This document shows positions 9,032 to 62,535 of a stretch of DNA of 64,000 bases, one piece after another (position 1 is the stretch's first letter; each line of letters begins with the position of its first letter). Source of the stretch: an uncultured delta proteobacterium (GTDB lineage: Bacteria > Desulfobacterota > Desulfobaccia > Desulfobaccales > 0-14-0-80-60-11); contig CAWETI010000002.1 in the NCBI GenBank assembly GCA_963812015.1, forward strand, positions 736,001-800,000, read 5' to 3'. The notes below the pieces were generated by a model, which did no database searches, was not told the DNA's origin, and saw nothing but the letters and a program-made list of their open reading frames with translations. The position numbers and the translations under genes were made by a program.

Positions 9032-9106
9032 TGTCATTCTGATTGAGCTAAGCGAAGAATCTATTCATTTCAAATCCATAGACCCTTCGCTGCGCTCAGG
9101 GTGACA
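9032..9106. repeat. REP-like palindromic element (TGTCATTCTG...CGAAGAATCT...CTTCGCTGCGCTCAGGGTGACA)
   Basis: Terminal inverted arms; partial related copy at 36842-36893. Confidence 0.7.
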
Positions 9107-9146
9107 GAAAAATAGGTTTTGAAAGAGGTTGTAGTGAGCGGTTAGA

Positions 9147-18250: not shown

Positions 18251-18279
18251 GGACGCAGCATTCCCATCGCAGCAAACGT

Positions 18280-18312
18280 GTAGGGGCGGGTTTTAACACC
18301 CGCCCCTTTTTT
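18280..18312 (+). repeat. GTAG-type REP-like hairpin serving as acsE terminator
   Basis: GTAGGGGCGGG-TTTTAACA-CCCGCCCCT followed by T run. Confidence 0.65.
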
Positions 18313-18318
18313 GGTTTC

Positions 18319-18386
18319 TGGGGAGAGGGCCAGGGGCCGACGGCCCCTGCCCACTCCCCAGGCCCCTCCCCCAACCCCCATAAGGG
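18319..18386 (+). repeat. G/C-rich palindromic repeat, copy 1
   Basis: GGGGAGAGGGCCAGGGGC...GCCCCTGCCCACTCCCC...CCCCTCCCCCAACCCC matches the first half of the polB insert read on the minus strand. Confidence 0.7.
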
Positions 18387-18442
18387 AAGGCGGGGTAAGC
18401 CCCAGTAACCGGTGGCCCGCTTTTTCCCCTTATCCCGATGTC

Positions 18443-20758
18443 TCAACAATGCTCTCTCAGGGCCAGCATGACCTCCTCCACGGCCCGCTCCAGCAAGTCC
18501 AGGTAGAGAGTCGTGTCATAGCCGTCCAACGCCTCCAGAAACGGCGCGGCTGCAACCCGGCACTCCTTGGGACCCTTTTTGCCCTCCCGGTGCACATAAC
18601 GCACCTTCTCCCCCGGCTGGATGTGGATGCCGGCGCCCTCCAATTGCCGGGTCGCCAGGGAGGTGGGAGTGTCCACCCGGTATTCTTCCACCTTTTGGGA
18701 CAACACCCGGGTAATGACCAGTTCCTGGGGGTTGATCCCCCCCTGCCGGAGACGTTGCCGGAAGCCTTCAGCCATAGCTTCCATCTCCGGCTTCAGGGCC
18801 GCCAGCTCCCCGGGCGTGGCCGCCTCGGCCATTTTTGCGAGCATGGCCTCCTGGGCCCGGCGCACAAAGGGCGGCGTGTCCCGCCGCCGGCACATGAGCC
18901 CGCGCACCTTAAGCGACCCGTCCCCGAAGACCCCGAAGTAGCGCGTCGCCACGGGCCGCTGAGGATCCTGTTTGGACGCCATAAAAAAAATCCAGCGGTA
19001 CACTCCCTCCAAGGCCAGCTTTACCCCCGTGACCCGGGAGACCTCCCGGCACAAGCCCTCCAGATCACCGGCTGTAAACCCTCGCTTCTGCACCCAGAGA
19101 CAGTCCGTGAGGCCGTGAAGCACCCTGAACCCCGCGGCCTCAAAGGTCTCCTTGGCGGCCAGCAGCTTGTCCCGGCCATAGGCGGTCACCGCTTCGTGGG
19201 CCTCAATGCGCCCGAACCGGGCGTTCTTGTATCCCAAATAGCCGAAGCAGGTAACCAACATCCACTTCAAGGCATTCTGCCGCTCTTTATAAAGCGCTGA
19301 TTCTTCTGGTGAAAGTTCCTTTACCCGAGTCTTTAAATCCTCTCTGAGTTTTAATATGGGCCTGAGCGTCCGGGGCACCAACCCCTCCCGCCGCCCACAG
19401 AGCCGGTAGCCAGCTTCGGGAACGAGGGTTGAGGGGAGGACCGGGGGATCAACGATCCCCCGCCCTCCCCTCAAACTCCCCTCCCACCCCCCTGTAAGGG
19501 GTTGGGGAAGGGGGTTTGGGGGAGTCTTTCGTAAGGGAAGAGGCTGTTCGCCCCTTGCCCTCTCCCCCAAACAGCAGCTACAATTCACCGTCTCCGGCGA
19601 GATATTATGAATCGTCATGATGGTGGGGTACATGGAGGCGAAGTCCACTTCCGCCACCTGGGTGTGGAGGCCCGGCGGCGGCATGAAGGTGAGGCCCCCC
19701 TTGTCGATGGTCAGCAGTTCCCTCGCGGTTTTGAAGTGTTCGGGTTCGGCTTTGCGCCAGGGGATGAGGATGCCGTCTGCGGTCGCCCGGGCCAGTTGCA
19801 TGGAGGTAATCAGCGTCCCGGGGCTGGACCGGGCCGCCTGTTGCAGGGGCATCTGGCCGATCCTGGCGATCTGGATGAGGCCCATAAGTCCCGATTCCCG
19901 GTAGTAGAAGGAGTTACGTCGGTCCAGGTGCCAGCGGCCGTAAAAGGGGGCGGAGGAGCCCTGGTAGACGATGCGGCCGTAAGAAAAATAGCTGCGGCCG
20001 CCGCTAAACCGCCGGGGGGGCGTATGCGCCTCCCGGTCCAGGGGCAGGTTTTCGTCATACTCCCGGCTCCAGCGCCAGACGGTGGGGATGATCTCTTCGT
20101 CGCCCCAGTCGCTCAACACCAGGTCAGGGTCCGTCTGTTTCAGCCAGCGTGCCAGTCCCCGCACCAGGGCTGGTTTATCCGGAGCCTCCAGCTCCAGGGT
20201 GCGGCCCTCCCAACCCACCGCCAGGCCGTTTCCCGCCCCGAGAGATATGAGAGGGTCCCGGGTGAGGGAAAGCGTCAGGGTGGCCAGGGGCGGCACGGAA
20301 AACTCCACCGCGAAGGCGTCCTCCCGGAGGCCAAGACGGAGCAAGCGCCCGTCTTCGGCCTCCACCTCATACCAGGCGCAGGGCCAGTAGCCGCGGGTAT
20401 AAAGATAGGTGGCCGCGATGTCCAGATCGCAGTTGTAACAAGCCACCTCTGCCGGAAGCGCCCCCAGCCACCGCCTCACCCGGGGCAGAAAGGCGTAGGC
20501 CTTCACCTCCAGGGCCACCACCGGGATCTCCCGGCCGGTCCATAAATCCTGGGCGCGGGACGGATAGGCCCGGCGCAGCCACCCCTTCTGGCCCAGGGCT
20601 CGGGCCAGGGACCGGACCCGCGCCTGGGGCCCGCCCAGATAGAGACGGTAAGGGAAATCATCCTCCAGGCGCAACCGCTCCCCCGTCGCGGTGATGAACC
20701 ACAAAACCATGCGGTCACCCAAGGGATAAAGATCAAACAGCCAGCCGGTGGTTTTCAT
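18443..20758 (-). CDS. Family B DNA polymerase, PolB2-like
   Basis: DFASMYP (motif A), QNALKWMLVTCFGYLG (motif B variant), HGLTDCL (motif C variant), KVRGL...RRD; degenerate exonuclease region. Confidence 0.9.
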   Translation of the reverse strand: MKTTGWLFDLYPLGDRMVLWFITATGERLRLEDDFPYRLYLGGPQARVRSLARALGQKGWLRRAYPSRAQDLWTGREIPVVALEVKAYAFLPRVRRWLGALPAEVACYNCDLDIAATYLYTRGYWPCAWYEVEAEDGRLLRLGLREDAFAVEFSVPPLATLTLSLTRDPLISLGAGNGLAVGWEGRTLELEAPDKPALVRGLARWLKQTDPDLVLSDWGDEEIIPTVWRWSREYDENLPLDREAHTPPRRFSGGRSYFSYGRIVYQGSSAPFYGRWHLDRRNSFYYRESGLMGLIQIARIGQMPLQQAARSSPGTLITSMQLARATADGILIPWRKAEPEHFKTARELLTIDKGGLTFMPPPGLHTQVAEVDFASMYPTIMTIHNISPETVNCSCCLGERARGEQPLPLRKTPPNPLPQPLTGGWEGSLRGGRGIVDPPVLPSTLVPEAGYRLCGRREGLVPRTLRPILKLREDLKTRVKELSPEESALYKERQNALKWMLVTCFGYLGYKNARFGRIEAHEAVTAYGRDKLLAAKETFEAAGFRVLHGLTDCLWVQKRGFTAGDLEGLCREVSRVTGVKLALEGVYRWIFFMASKQDPQRPVATRYFGVFGDGSLKVRGLMCRRRDTPPFVRRAQEAMLAKMAEAATPGELAALKPEMEAMAEGFRQRLRQGGINPQELVITRVLSQKVEEYRVDTPTSLATRQLEGAGIHIQPGEKVRYVHREGKKGPKECRVAAAPFLEALDGYDTTLYLDLLERAVEEVMLALREHC
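19429..19571. repeat. G/C-rich palindromic repeat inserted in frame in polB
   Basis: Two hairpins plus a central palindrome; reverse complement of 19429-19497 is nearly identical to intergenic 21173-21240. Confidence 0.85.
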
Positions 20759-20777
20759 AGATGTTAGGGAAGATGAT

Positions 20778-20823
20778 TTTGGGGTGAGGGCAGGGACCCT
20801 CGGTCCCTGGCCCTCACCCCAAA
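20778..20823. repeat. G/C-rich palindromic repeat hairpin between the small partner gene and polB
   Basis: TTTGGGGTGAGGGC-AGGGACC-CTC-GGTCCCT-G-GCCCTCACCCCAAA; contains the stop codon of the upstream gene. Confidence 0.75.
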
Positions 20824-21086
20824 TTTTCTTCTTCCGCCTTCAGGCGGCGCAGGCGCTCTTGGAGGGCGCTTATCATTTTCTGGTGCTCCAGGAGCATGGA
20901 CAGGAGCATGGACTCCAGGGGCCAGGGTTGGGAGGCGTACACCCCCGCCTGGAGGTGCAGGCGGGCCGACTCAAAGAGCCGGTCCAGGTGGGCCTGGTCC
21001 TCCCGGCGCAGGGCCCGGCGGAATTTCTGCCAGCGCTGCCGCTCTTCTTCCCAAACCTGGCTGTAAGGTAAAACCGTCCGTCCCAT
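20814..21086 (-). CDS. Small helical PolB2-associated protein (arCOG07300/PPB2-like)
   Basis: MGRT...W..FRRALRREDQ..LDRLF..AR.H...P.ESMLLSMLLE pattern, located between iRadA and polB. Confidence 0.75.
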   Translation of the reverse strand: MGRTVLPYSQVWEEERQRWQKFRRALRREDQAHLDRLFESARLHLQAGVYASQPWPLESMLLSMLLEHQKMISALQERLRRLKAEEENLG

Positions 21087-21172
21087 AATTACCAGTTGTC
21101 AGATGTAGAGTGGCCATACCACCCTACGGCTTCAAAGGAGCATAGGCTGGAAGCCTGTGCCACCAAAAACCT

Positions 21173-21240
21173 TTACAGGGGGCTGGGAGGGGAGTTTGAG
21201 GGGAGGGCGGGGGACTCGCGTCCCCCGGTCCTCCCCTCAA
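21173..21240 (+). repeat. G/C-rich palindromic repeat, intergenic copy
   Basis: TTACAGGGGGCTGGGAGGGGAGTTTGAGGGGAGGGCGGGGGA...TCCCCCGGTCCTCCCCTCAA. Confidence 0.8.
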
Positions 21241-21262
21241 TTTTCCACCCCTCTCCTTCCCT

Positions 21263-21457
21263 TCACCCCGCCATCAGCATGATCAAGGCGCTTACCACGA
21301 TCAGGGTCAGGGTTCCCAGAAATTTCAAAATTTCCAGGAGATAGGTCATGGCGTCTGCCGGTAAGGCCAGGGCTTGGCTCAATTGCTTCAGCTTAACAAG
21401 AGCCGTAAATTTTAGCCCGGGATGCAGGTATTGGTACTCGGGTAAGAATACGTCCAC
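21263..21457 (-). CDS. Putative small protein (64 aa) with C-terminal transmembrane helix inside the lexA cassette
   Basis: GTG 1 nt after the iRadA stop, SD AGGAG 9 nt upstream; C-terminus LLEILKFLGTLTLIVVSALIMLMAG; alternative ATG at 21349. Confidence 0.5.
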   Translation of the reverse strand: MDVFLPEYQYLHPGLKFTALVKLKQLSQALALPADAMTYLLEILKFLGTLTLIVVSALIMLMAG

Positions 21458-21458
21458 T

Positions 21459-22103
21459 TTACAGGTCTCCTTTTTGAGGCCGGGCGGGGCTGGGTTGGCG
21501 ACGCTCCTGCCATAACGTGTCTCGAGGCGGCGCCGCATCCGTCGTCCCTAACCGGCGGGGCGCCTCGCTCCGGTCTTTCCGACTTTCCACTTCCACCAAG
21601 TAATCAATCACCGGGGCCAGCAGCCGGCCGAAGTGTTGGTTGGTGGCGGCCCGGGGCAGGAAGGGTTGCACCAGCAGCAGGGCGGACTGGATCTTGATCC
21701 GGGTCAGGTGGTGCACCAGGTCCTGAAAGAGGCGGCGGCGTTCGCTCAAGGGCACCTGTTCGTCGTAGAACAGGCTCACCGGCCCCAGGACCAGCACCAG
21801 GCTGCCGGGTGCAAGAATCGTCGGGAAGGTCTCCTCCAGGAGGCGCACCAGTTGGTGGGAGGTGAAGGCCCGGGCCACCCGTACCCGGGAGAGGGCTTCC
21901 TGGGGCGAAAGATTGTGGTGGACCGCCTCCCGGACCAGCCGGTACGGGTCAAAGCGGTTGGCCGCGTCCACCACCAGAACCGGCGCCCCCCGGGTTACCC
22001 CCCAGACCGCGGCGGCCGCGGCCACCGCCCGGAGGTGTTCCCCCCAAAGCAATACCCCCCGGCCCGGTTTCAGGGGTGCCAGATAGCGGCTTAAAGCCTT
22101 CAT
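21459..22103 (-). CDS. Inactivated RecA/RadA-fold protein (iRadA, ImuA-analogous)
   Basis: VLVVDAANRFDPY and RVRVARAFTSHQL RadA-like motifs; no Walker A GKT; overlaps lexA stop (ATGA). Confidence 0.8.
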   Translation of the reverse strand: MKALSRYLAPLKPGRGVLLWGEHLRAVAAAAAVWGVTRGAPVLVVDAANRFDPYRLVREAVHHNLSPQEALSRVRVARAFTSHQLVRLLEETFPTILAPGSLVLVLGPVSLFYDEQVPLSERRRLFQDLVHHLTRIKIQSALLLVQPFLPRAATNQHFGRLLAPVIDYLVEVESRKDRSEAPRRLGTTDAAPPRDTLWQERRQPSPARPQKGDL

Positions 22104-22723
22104 CCGCGTCTTTTGCCCTCCAGGTTGCGGTACACGCCCACCACCTTGCCCAGGATCCGCACGTCGGCGGCCTCTGCCGGAGAGAAGCGCAGGGGGGTGA
22201 AATCCGGGTTGTCGCCCTTGAGGACCAGGCCTCCGGCCTCCTCGTACACCCGTTTCAGGGTAGCCTCATCGTCGATGAGCGCCACCGCGATCTCCCCCCG
22301 AGCCACCCGGGCCTGCACCCGGACCATCACCAGGTCGTCGGGCAGGATCACCGGGGCCATACTCTCCCCGGTGACCCTCAGGAGAAAGACCTCCTCCCCC
22401 CGGACCCAGGAGCGGGGCAGGGGCAGGGTCTCTTCGACGTTTTCGCTGGCCAGCAGGGGTTGACCCGCGGCAATGCGGCCCAGCACCGGCACTTCCACCA
22501 CCGGCCCAGGGCTGCGGGAGGTCAGGGACAGGCCCCGGGAGAGCCCCGGTTCCCGATGGAGGAAGCCTTTGCGCTTCAAGGCCGCCAGATGGTCCACCGC
22601 GGCCCGGGGTTGGATACCGAAGGCGGCGGCCACTTCCCGCACCGTGGGGGGATAGCCCTGGCGCTCGCAAAACTCCTCCACAAAGGCCAAGATTGCCTGT
22701 TGTCGGTCGGTTAATGGCTTCAT
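22100..22723 (-). CDS. lexA: SOS repressor LexA
   Basis: LTDRQ...GYPPTVRE HTH, Ala-Gly cleavage site (IAAGQP), catalytic Ser (GESM) and Lys (ATLKR). Confidence 0.95.
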   Translation of the reverse strand: MKPLTDRQQAILAFVEEFCERQGYPPTVREVAAAFGIQPRAAVDHLAALKRKGFLHREPGLSRGLSLTSRSPGPVVEVPVLGRIAAGQPLLASENVEETLPLPRSWVRGEEVFLLRVTGESMAPVILPDDLVMVRVQARVARGEIAVALIDDEATLKRVYEEAGGLVLKGDNPDFTPLRFSPAEAADVRILGKVVGVYRNLEGKRRG

Positions 22724-22729
22724 GGCCTT

Positions 22730-22758
22730 AAACTACTATACAAAAGAATACGTGTCAA
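22730..22758 (-). promoter_or_regulatory. lexA promoter TTGACA-N17-TAGTTT, +1 predicted at the ATG (leaderless)
   Basis: -35 at 22758-22753, -10 at 22735-22730, 6 nt to ATG, no well-spaced SD. Confidence 0.55.
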
Positions 22759-22859
22759 GAGAATAGTTAAGAGCAGCCAACGATTTGTTTCCCGGCGCTT
22801 TCCTCCCCCGGTTGTGCCGAGGTTGTTTTATGGTCAGGGTCTTGATATGTTGAATTATT

Positions 22860-36763: not shown

Positions 36764-37158
36764 TTGTCTGTGGCCATTTTGCTCCCATCTTCTCCAAAAA
36801 TCGCAGGTTTCGGCCCACAGGCTAGCTCCTGGTGTACTGGGGAGGATCTATTATTCACATTAGTTGAGATCCTACGTGGCGCTCAGGATGACAAAAGAGC
36901 CAGTTTTTCAACAGTCTGATAGAGAAGATGCAGGGGCGGAAAGGTGCGAGCCGATATGATAAGGAAGCACCTTATGGGGCGGAGAGAGGAGCAGGGATTT
37001 AGACCAAACCCATGACGGGCGGGAAAAGTTTTCTGACCGAATCTATCAGAACGGCATCAATTGATAACCGCAATAAAGGGCAGGAGAAAGTAAGTTTTGC
37101 GGGGAATACTAATCTTGAAATCGTCTTTTGCTCGGAGGCGCGGCGATGCTACCGGGTT

Positions 37159-52770: not shown

Positions 52771-52867
52771 ATAGAAACTTTCGTATCATAGATTTTCGCT
52801 TTCCCTTTGGCAAACCATCTTTGGCTTGACTTGACCCCCATCCTAACTTAAAACTTGGTACAACTAC

Positions 52868-53110
52868 TGGGCGCAGGTCAATACCGTGACGCACGCCTTC
52901 CATGAAACTGCCACCAGGGCGGGCCTGAAGTGCCGGCTGCATGATCTGAGGCATACCTACGCCTCACATAAGGCCATGGCCGGCGTTGACCTCTATACGC
53001 TCAAGGAGCTGCTCGGGCACAAGGACATAAAGGCCACGCAGATATATGCTCACCTGTCGGCCAAGCATCTCAAAAAGGCCGCCGGCGAGGGCGTGGCGGG
53101 AGGGGATTGA
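52868..53110 (+). pseudogene. C-terminal fragment of a tyrosine recombinase/integrase
   Basis: LHDLRHTYAS, LLGH, TQIYAH catalytic motifs; in-frame stop at 52844-52846 so the N-terminal part is missing. Confidence 0.88.
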
Positions 53111-61573: not shown

Positions 61574-61677
61574 TAACTCGCTATAAGCTGGAAATAAAAA
61601 AGGCAGGGCCATGGTGACCTGCCCCCATTTCGATCCACTACTCTAAATAATTCGTGGATCAGTTTTTGGGGGGCAGG

Positions 61678-62535
61678 TCACTTTTTGATCACCAACACCG
61701 GACAGGTAGCCTGACCGATGACTCGCTCCGTTACCGAGCCCATGAGAAGTTTTTTTACCCCGGTTCGGCCGTGGCTGCCCATGATGATTATATTCACCTT
61801 ATATCGAAGGGCCTCTTGGACGATGGCGTCATCGGGTTGCATTCCCTGGGGCACCAGACCCTGGACTGGCATCCCCTGCTGGTTGGCGGCGCTTAAGAGC
61901 CGATGCATGATTTCTTTGGCCTGAACTATTTCTCCCTCCCCCCGAGCTACGGAAATAGCATACAGTTCAGCCTGCGTTTCCCGGGCAAGCGCCAGCGCCT
62001 CCCCCCAGGCCGCATCACTGAAAGGGGAGCCGTCGCTGGCCACCAGGAGGGTTCGAAAGGCCATCGTGGCGTTTTGGGGCACCACCAGGACATTAAAGGG
62101 GCTGTAGCCAATGACCTGGGCGGTGGTGCTGCCCATAAACAGCTGGGACAGGCCCGCGTGGCCGAAGCGTCCCATGACGATCAGGTCCGGCTGGATGACC
62201 TCGGCCTCTTCCAGAATGGTGGCATGGGGCCAGCGGCCATAGCGCACCCGAGTCTCTACTGAGACCCCGGCCTTGGCCGAGGCAGCTTTAATCGTCTCCA
62301 GGTAGGAAGAGACTTCTCTCGCCAGCATGGCCCTGGCATCGGGCGCCACGGCCTCAACCTCCGCTCTAACCCTCAGGACATTGACCACGTAAACCTTTTG
62401 CCCGCAGACTTGGGCCAGGGCCAGAGTGGCCTTGATCGCCCCCTGGCTACGCGGGGAGCCATCGGTGCAGAGCAGGAGTTTCTGCCAGCTCGAGGGGCAA
62501 ATAAACGGCTGGGAAGGCCGAGAAAGGTTCACCAT
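61678..62535 (-). CDS. Tandem-domain universal stress protein
   Basis: Two USP domains: TDGS...VMGRFG...MGSTT and SDGS...MGSHGRTG...MGSVT. Confidence 0.92.
   Translation of the reverse strand: MVNLSRPSQPFICPSSWQKLLLCTDGSPRSQGAIKATLALAQVCGQKVYVVNVLRVRAEVEAVAPDARAMLAREVSSYLETIKAASAKAGVSVETRVRYGRWPHATILEEAEVIQPDLIVMGRFGHAGLSQLFMGSTTAQVIGYSPFNVLVVPQNATMAFRTLLVASDGSPFSDAAWGEALALARETQAELYAISVARGEGEIVQAKEIMHRLLSAANQQGMPVQGLVPQGMQPDDAIVQEALRYKVNIIIMGSHGRTGVKKLLMGSVTERVIGQATCPVLVIKK

Follow-up and report, generated by a model that had tools for sequence, protein, structure and literature searches.

Can a bacterium run damage-induced mutagenesis on an archaeal-type family B DNA polymerase? The question is raised by a 64,000-nucleotide (nt) stretch from an uncultured delta proteobacterium of the order Desulfobaccales (GenBank assembly GCA_963812015.1, contig CAWETI010000002.1, positions 736,001 to 800,000), hereafter the window, in which positions 18443-22758 hold lexA, the RadA-like gene iRadA, a small membrane protein gene (TM64), PPB2 and the polymerase gene polB2. 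A first-pass annotation had read this cluster as a candidate alternative SOS mutasome, an interpretation that sequence analysis supports and whose idea had already been published. In the form that we favour, with a probability of about 0.8, the cluster would encode a LexA-repressed, RecA-triggered PolB2-iRadA-PPB2 mutasome that extends primers; we infer all of its functional steps.

Gene order and identity of the PolB2 operon

The five genes are co-oriented, as the first-pass annotation had it (window coordinates; aa, amino acids):

22100-22723, minus strand: lexA, 207 aa, cleavage site and Ser/Lys dyad intact
21459-22103, minus strand: iRadA, 214 aa, RadA/Rad51 ATPase fold without N-terminal domain or Walker A motif
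21263-21457, minus strand: TM64, 64 aa, small predicted membrane protein with a predicted amphipathic helix (residues 17-30) and a predicted hydrophobic C-terminal helix (34-63)
20814-21086, minus strand: PPB2, 90 aa, arCOG07300 type, N-terminal MGRT
18443-20758, minus strand: polB2, 771 aa, family B polymerase with a single motif-C Asp and a DK motif at 352-353

The bacterial PolB2 operon described previously has the gene order iRadA-PPB2-PolB2, an MGRT arm, a DK motif, a replaced first Asp of DxD and an enrichment of lexA nearby, and allows for extra interspersed genes (PMC11791011; Timinskas, 2025); lexA within the same operon has been noted in bacteria such as Leptospirillum (PMC4104785; Makarova, 2014). 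The belief that comparative genomics had already recorded this gene association was therefore correct. All sequence features of the published operon are present at the locus, with the three genes in order on one strand and TM64 interspersed, and their sequences confirm it as an intact member of the known family, iRadA-PPB2-PolB2 behind lexA. The published cassette has no counterpart of TM64, which had been counted as a cassette member.

Analysis of the neighbourhoods showed that the order lexA-iRadA-PPB2-polB2 is kept in 24 of the 35 loci fetched from relatives, most exceptions being contig ends, and that among 80 wider polB2 loci PPB2 is a neighbour in 56, iRadA in 50 and lexA in 25. PolB2 was found at E < 1e-40 in 32 of the 41 genomes searched, with weak matches, at the level of a repeat insert, in three more. 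The source genome (3.96 Mb; G000 in our counts, where G-numbers denote genomes, L-numbers loci, and f1 and f2 genome families) has 3111 genes and is 73% coding according to our own crude gene caller. It has one lexA (tblastn), one recA, one DinB and one DnaE; dnaE2 was not found in it, and DnaE is single in 24 of 25 relatives. One assembly (G036) holds three polB2 operons (L048, L049 and L050), all with broken frames, for which a strain mixture or read errors are the likely cause.

The altered polymerase motifs listed in the first-pass annotation, DFASMYP (372), KWMLVTCFGYLG (498) and HGLTDCL (548), are all present in the translation. The last of these has the first Asp of DxD replaced, the D(K/R) motif is present as IDKGG, and D352, D372, H548 and D552 are invariant across 61 sequences. 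In blastp the protein scored 275-325 bits with seven haloarchaeal PolB2 proteins, against 37 bits with E. coli Pol II, and its NCBIfam scores were 401 bits for PolB2 versus 46 bits for Pol II, both below the cut-off; the scores of 141 bits for PolB3 and 106 bits for PolB1 were obtained with a different program than the blastp values. Taken with gene order and motifs, the blastp scores uphold the assignment to archaeal-type PolB2 rather than to Pol II, whose E. coli form has YGDTD, an active exonuclease and a single subunit, none of which applies here. The PolB2 model has a mean predicted local distance difference test score (pLDDT) of 89.3 and is closest in fold to archaeal PolB3 5mdn (TM score 0.70). 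LATLTLSL aligns to LRVLAFDIEV of 5mdn, so that the ExoI DxE is absent and the exonuclease site is lost: the proofreading domain, which had been called eroded, lacks its catalytic residues, although the domain itself still folds with high confidence. The ratio of non-synonymous to synonymous substitution rates (dN/dS) is 0.13-0.21 for the PolB2 core (10 pairs) and 0.11-0.19 for PolA (8 pairs); judged by these ratios, purifying selection acts on the core much as on PolA.

The partner proteins fit as well. iRadA scores 25.6 bits to Pfam Rad51 (cut-off 22), archaeal RadA structures match its residues 40-149, and GxxxxGKT was found neither in it nor in 20 orthologues, in agreement with the earlier view of a RadA fold without Walker A; the N-terminal domain and the ATPase site are both missing. 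The 90-aa helical protein proved to be PPB2, with the expected size, helical make-up and MGRT N-terminus, and the Haloferax partner gene likewise begins with MGRT. The PPB2 C-termini at L027 and L038 read RLLPLLPE and QLLPLLPE and the DUF72 C-terminus at L067 reads QMSLW, all of which, by the consensus that we assume, resemble beta-clamp binding motifs. The accessible text of PMC11791011 makes no mention of a clamp motif on PPB2.

The operon is flanked by a Wood-Ljungdahl acetyl-CoA synthase cluster on one side and an aminotransferase on the other. About 20 kb before the window lies a second family A polymerase homologue (G000:C2:715388-716929, L204), a 718-aa frame with a 3'-5' exonuclease-like motif.

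The lexA promoter and its candidate operator

LexA passes the curated family TIGR00498 (192 bits; cut-off 111) and keeps A86-G87, S121 and K157, which we take, by analogy with E. coli LexA, to be the cleavage site and the catalytic dyad. The claim of an intact cleavable LexA thus stands, and the gene has a candidate operator at its own promoter, as befits a LexA repressor. Its reading frame overlaps that of iRadA by ATGA (22100-22103), in keeping with the translational coupling proposed earlier. The promoter region contains the following elements:

22753-22758 and 22730-22735, minus strand: lexA promoter, -35 box TTGACA and predicted -10 box, with the operator in between
22736-22751, minus strand: candidate LexA operator GTATTC-TTTT-GTATAG, consensus CTATAC-N4-GTATAG
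22751-22766, minus strand: second, weaker copy of the palindrome, overlapping the -35 box

Comparison of 21 Desulfobaccales lexA loci (three of them from one genome) showed a common layout of TTGACA, a 17-nt spacer that holds the palindrome and an ATG 12-13 nt after the palindrome. Because this ATG spacing is conserved, the lexA mRNA is likely leaderless; in the window the ATG lies 6 nt after the predicted -10 box. The palindrome occurs with at most two mismatches in all 21 loci, which are the set that defined it, and in 15 of 21 loci outside that set (11 of them with at most one mismatch), including records from Syntrophales, Planctomycetota, Nitrospirae, Bacteroidota and Kryptonia. The background among 3111 upstream regions is 5 at one mismatch and 56 at up to two. 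In one relative (G002) a perfect palindrome precedes an iRadA-PPB2-polB2 operon that has no lexA, and lexA, on another contig, has its own copy upstream. The palindrome is likely to be a LexA binding site, and its conservation makes LexA control of the cassette well supported. Word searches of the literature, which were weak, returned no matching report of this palindrome.

Some matches lie elsewhere. A site before a DUF72 gene in G000, considered as evidence of a wider LexA regulon, is missing from all four orthologues that could be read and was rejected. Another match in G000 lies before recD2 (C2:463528). Of the others, the one at G000:C3:722654 is perfect and has no evident gene following it, those at C3:996447 and 996472 form a tandem close to an integrase, and that at G035:C41:35380, also perfect, precedes cooS. 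The acidobacterial polB2-linked lexA promoters of L083, L087 and L088 share a direct repeat, TTTTCG (two or three times), over the -35/-10 spacer.

TM64 and the hairpin repeats

The TM64 frame starts with GTG at 21457, behind a Shine-Dalgarno-like AAGGAG, and has 96 homologues, mostly of 62-64 aa and without a Pfam label. The earlier start at 21538 therefore fails, as does a 91-aa reading of this small frame, since the conserved frame begins at 21457. TM64 is present in 13 of the 35 relatives' loci, all in family f1, with dN/dS of 0.29-0.58 (9 pairs). In G002 it follows lexA although iRadA, PPB2 and polB2 lie elsewhere; because it stays with lexA, it would belong to the lexA unit and not to the polymerase complex, and on these distributions it is a lineage-specific accessory gene of that unit. 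Small membrane proteins serve as SOS division checkpoints in several bacteria, and SidA, DidA, YneA and DivS resemble TM64 in small size and a single hydrophobic helix, TM64 lying behind lexA (PMC6051672). We found no family or look-alike match for TM64 and no usable match in the ESM Atlas. A division brake or a membrane stress factor is a weak suggestion, and by analogy an SOS division inhibitor is conceivable yet doubtful.

The operon also contains hairpin repeats, one of them in frame within polB2:

19429-19571, minus strand: dispersed repeat in polB2, 143 nt, three hairpins, residues ~397-444, net +45 aa
20763-20830, no strand assigned: family-0 hairpin, intergenic, between PPB2 and polB2
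21167-21246, no strand assigned: partial copy of the family-0 hairpin repeat, intergenic
18278-18390, no strand assigned: GTAG-type repetitive extragenic palindrome (REP) and family-0 hairpin, in the gap that separates polB2 from the convergently oriented methyltransferase gene of the acetyl-CoA synthase cluster

The element within polB2 has 33 near-full copies across the genome and folds into three hairpins (dG -55.1, z -6.2), with compensatory changes in 14 of 51 pairs among 15 copies; Rfam gave no family at threshold, only sub-threshold hairpin matches. It is flanked by the invariant C393/C395/C396 and C454 of PolB2, which may form a metal site, and residues 399-440 are the only segment of the PolB2 model with pLDDT < 50, the insert appearing there as a disordered surface loop of the palm beside the four-Cys cluster. 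Contigs of run X1, which may be the source sample, link both polB2 flanks to the element, and run X2 contains a strain with 84 other letters at this position. Excision was considered and set aside: no joint skipping 19429-19571 was seen among the joints listed for contigs of two DNA and two RNA runs, a weak test. Contigs of the RNA runs, ~10% diverged, cover parts of lexA, iRadA, PPB2 and polB2 and were not counted as expression, since they come from relatives and may derive from DNA.

At this position (site 1) the loop is 4 aa long when empty. Among 16 family f1 genomes, 14 have it filled with 16-89 aa, and 13 of these fillings match G000 repeat families in a library that misses old diverged copies; it is empty in 6 of 6 family f2 loci. 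A second polB2 loop, after motif C, is filled with other repeat types in 8 of 19 f1 and 4 of 6 f2 loci. Outside the Desulfobaccales clade both loops are near constant, L136 with its 20-aa insert being the exception, and inserts occur at a third polB2 loop in five Syntrophales-like loci. Since a single origin suffices for site 1 on a quick tree (support 28, hence weak), this loop was probably opened once, and several repeat families have replaced one another in it since then. None of the inserts measured breaks the frame; they have no common peptide, with dN/dS of 0.7 and 2.1 in two pairs, and the polB2 insert is likely a tolerated passenger. At L040 (G022) iRadA reads through a repeat-derived linker into PPB2, and repeats may be one source of the fusions reported for the PolB2 operon.

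The polB2 element is thus like the Rickettsia palindromic elements (RPE) in being multi-copy and palindromic, in frame in a conserved gene, with an empty site in orthologues. It has no GTAG tag and no partner gene was found for it, DUF559 nuclease, a candidate partner, being absent from G000; other inserts are GTAG REPs of the kind that flank genes resembling REP-associated tyrosine transposases (RAYT). Although G000 has 545 repeat loci, an internal in-frame repeat occurs in only 6 of ~3100 called genes, four of them not repair genes. Besides polB2 these are:

C2:553348-554781: murF
C2:1237595-1240819: PHP-UvrD helicase gene
C3:1362052-1364754: ABC permease gene
C3:1564030-1565406: lpxB
G000:C3:2176077-2177105 (L060; relatives L207-L231): prmC

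The murF and PHP-UvrD helicase genes lie 5-7 kb from RAYT-like genes. Repeat-derived in-frame inserts occupy the inter-domain linker of PrmC in 13 of 19 f1 and 0 of 6 f2 genomes, whereas the controls gave 0 of 17 for acsB, 2 of 25 (8 aa) for polA and a constant span in 18 full-length matches for uvrA. Because prmC shows the same pattern as polB2, we read the phenomenon as RPE-like loop tagging that is not specific to repair; repair-specific targeting as a general rule is ruled out by prmC and the three controls.

In one f2 genus a RAYT-like transposase gene with flanking GTAG REPs lies just before PPB2 (G025, G027, G036 and, truncated, G030; six loci in four genomes); it scores 64 bits to NF047646 (below the cut-off of 80), has an internal REP that splits it and does not occur in the operons of G035 and G038. 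In G025, G027 and G030 the operon copy is the only or best one of its type. Independent insertions are disfavoured, and a single ancestral event is probable, because these three genomes share neighbouring cargo. The operon of G027 (L308, G027:C1:2417000-2423760) contains ~5 kb of co-oriented cargo, including a 498-aa unknown and the RAYT; from motifs, we take other cargo genes to be a four-helix-bundle-type gene after lexA, two DUF488-like genes, a dual-OB-like gene and a small antitoxin-like gene. Operon cargo elsewhere includes a toxin-antitoxin-like pair (G035) and an HNH-like gene (G036). RAYT adjoins 1 of the 80 wider polB2 loci, and 19 of 28 genomes have scattered Y1 transposase genes. 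Genes of the IS200/IS605 family lie upstream of polB2 at 2 of 7 haloarchaeal loci; in Haloferax volcanii pHV4 a TnpB gene separates PPB2 from polB2 (L270), and in Halobacterium pNRC200 an IS200/IS605 transposase gene precedes polB2 (L274).

The repeats in polB2 might not be passengers, if damage induction or the operon itself favoured hairpin-repeat insertion or if the inserts tuned the enzyme. Such a role would accord with the differing repeat families in the two polB2 loops, the RAYT-like gene with REPs upstream of PPB2, the haloarchaeal IS200/IS605 genes and the intragenic REPs described in repair genes including dnaE2 (PMC3733652). Against these stand the equally frequent tagging of the non-repair prmC linker, the lack of it in the repair genes polA and uvrA, the preponderance of non-repair genes among those tagged in G000, the presence of RAYT at a single wider locus, inserts that share no peptide and have the dN/dS ratios given above, and the single origin, weakly supported, that suffices for site 1; repeat density at the locus is only mildly high (48 of 545 windows are as dense). 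We consider a non-passenger role unlikely. Damage-linked mobilization of repeats is possible but unsupported, and word searches of the literature, again weak, yielded no match for a RAYT under LexA control.

Other dispersed repeat families in the window occur at 9032-9119, 36839-36917, 52812-52880 and 61639-61681, the last two flanking a lower-GC stretch with an integrase fragment (52886-53110).

Proposed mechanism, rival readings and known systems

In the mechanism that we favour, LexA dimers on the palindrome in the -35/-10 spacer would keep a single transcript from being made, and RecA filaments at damage would trigger LexA self-cleavage. PolB2 would then assemble with iRadA and a PPB2 trimer, as in the published model of a PolB2-iRadA-PPB2x3 heteropentamer, which was presented as a mutasome parallel to Pol V (PMC11791011). 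The single DinB probably inserts opposite the lesion, after which the PolB2 complex would extend mismatched or lesion-paired primer ends without proofreading, like Sulfolobus Dpo2. Error-prone activity in bacteria is suggested by analogy with that enzyme, and repression, co-transcription, complex formation and mutagenesis are all presumed steps.

Several observations weigh against this mechanism or its reach. The literature searched contained no functional assay of a bacterial PolB2, and the experiments cited for PolB2 in the available part of PMC12926913 are still archaeal only. Six of the 21 further loci lack the palindrome (three from Acidobacteria, one each from Chloroflexota and Nitrospirota, and L075), and it was not found before recA or dinB, before uvrA (22 loci, best 3 mismatches) or before polA (21 loci), which speaks against a broad SOS regulon; because of these absences, the regulon looks nearly limited to the cassette. 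A sigma-70 scan did not list the lexA promoter, whose -10 box matches 3 of 6 positions, and the four hairpin repeats in ~3 kb of operon could lead to cleavage or termination of the transcript. Inspection of the PolB2 and iRadA termini by eye showed no clamp-binding motif, and the polymerase tree is a quick one that includes no PolB1 or PolB3 rows.

A damage-induced cassette could instead serve non-mutagenic repair or fork restart, through gap filling and protection of single-stranded DNA by iRadA. Roles in repair or in regulation of replication have been proposed (PMC4104785), DUF72 lies near 8 of the 80 wider polB2 loci and G000 has a separate DinB; we nevertheless regard this as improbable beside translesion mutagenesis. 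A combined reading, in which the SOS unit of Desulfobaccales would unite the PolB2 mutasome, TM64 as a division brake and a place where hairpin repeats both land and are launched, joined in one genus by a REP transposase under LexA control, seems quite improbable. Decay of a dispensable, non-functional polB2, to which the four repeats and the broken frames in L029, L035 and L048-L050 might point, is very improbable, being largely refuted by the PolA-like dN/dS of the core, the in-frame inserts and the presence of PolB2 in 32 of 41 genomes; in L029 and L035 sequencing errors are suggested because lexA, iRadA and PPB2 are broken alike there.

The bacterial PolB2 mutasome, so far a computational prediction, gains three additions here: the candidate operator, TM64 and order-wide in-frame repeat tagging. 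An operator that accompanies the cassette in several phyla opens its LexA control to direct tests. In Desulfobaccales, where dnaE2 was not found, PolB2 would be the chief inducible mutator, which makes the order a clean test case. Loop tagging in the polymerase and PrmC extends Rickettsia-style growth of proteins by repeats to a free-living lineage, and repeat-tagged genes yield spurious homology-search matches, some genomes matching through the insert alone. If the combined reading were true, DNA damage would switch on point mutagenesis and repeat mobilization together, the mutator polymerase would itself have its surface loops rewritten by repeats time and again, and RAYT/REP elements and REPs in repair genes would acquire a host-side context.

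Of the known systems, the published PolB2 (G2) operon is the closest, with the same order, MGRT arm, DK motif, single motif-C Asp, dead exonuclease, iRadA without Walker A and lexA in front. The locus differs from it in the added 64-aa membrane-protein gene, the in-frame repeat, the defined operator and a clamp motif that was not seen; the terms membrane, zinc, cysteine, transposase and SOS box are absent from the main text of PMC11791011. Sulfolobus Dpo2, compared by description, belongs to the same polymerase group and is the sole PolB2 member for which we found genetic proof of damage-induced mutagenesis, but it is archaeal, with regulation of the Orc1 type rather than by LexA (PMC7390963). 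The lexA-imuA-imuB-dnaE2 cassette and Pol V share the logic of a LexA-linked cassette, a RecA/Rad51-fold partner and an error-prone polymerase, whereas the locus has a B-family catalytic subunit and PPB2. The E. coli SOS box is CTGT-N8-ACAG. The M. xanthus box, CTRHAMRYBYGTTCAGS, has the same 6-4-6 layout, and CTATAC fits CTRHAM (PMC9705874), whereas the palindrome described here is symmetric, CTATAC-N4-GTATAG, and has no site before recA. Repeats in error-prone polymerase genes have been noted among intragenic REPs (PMC3733652), and Rickettsia palindromic elements are likewise ~150-nt palindromic repeats in frame in conserved genes (PMC10969869); the Desulfobaccales elements differ from the latter in that their hosts are free-living and that several unrelated families replace each other in the same loops across the order.

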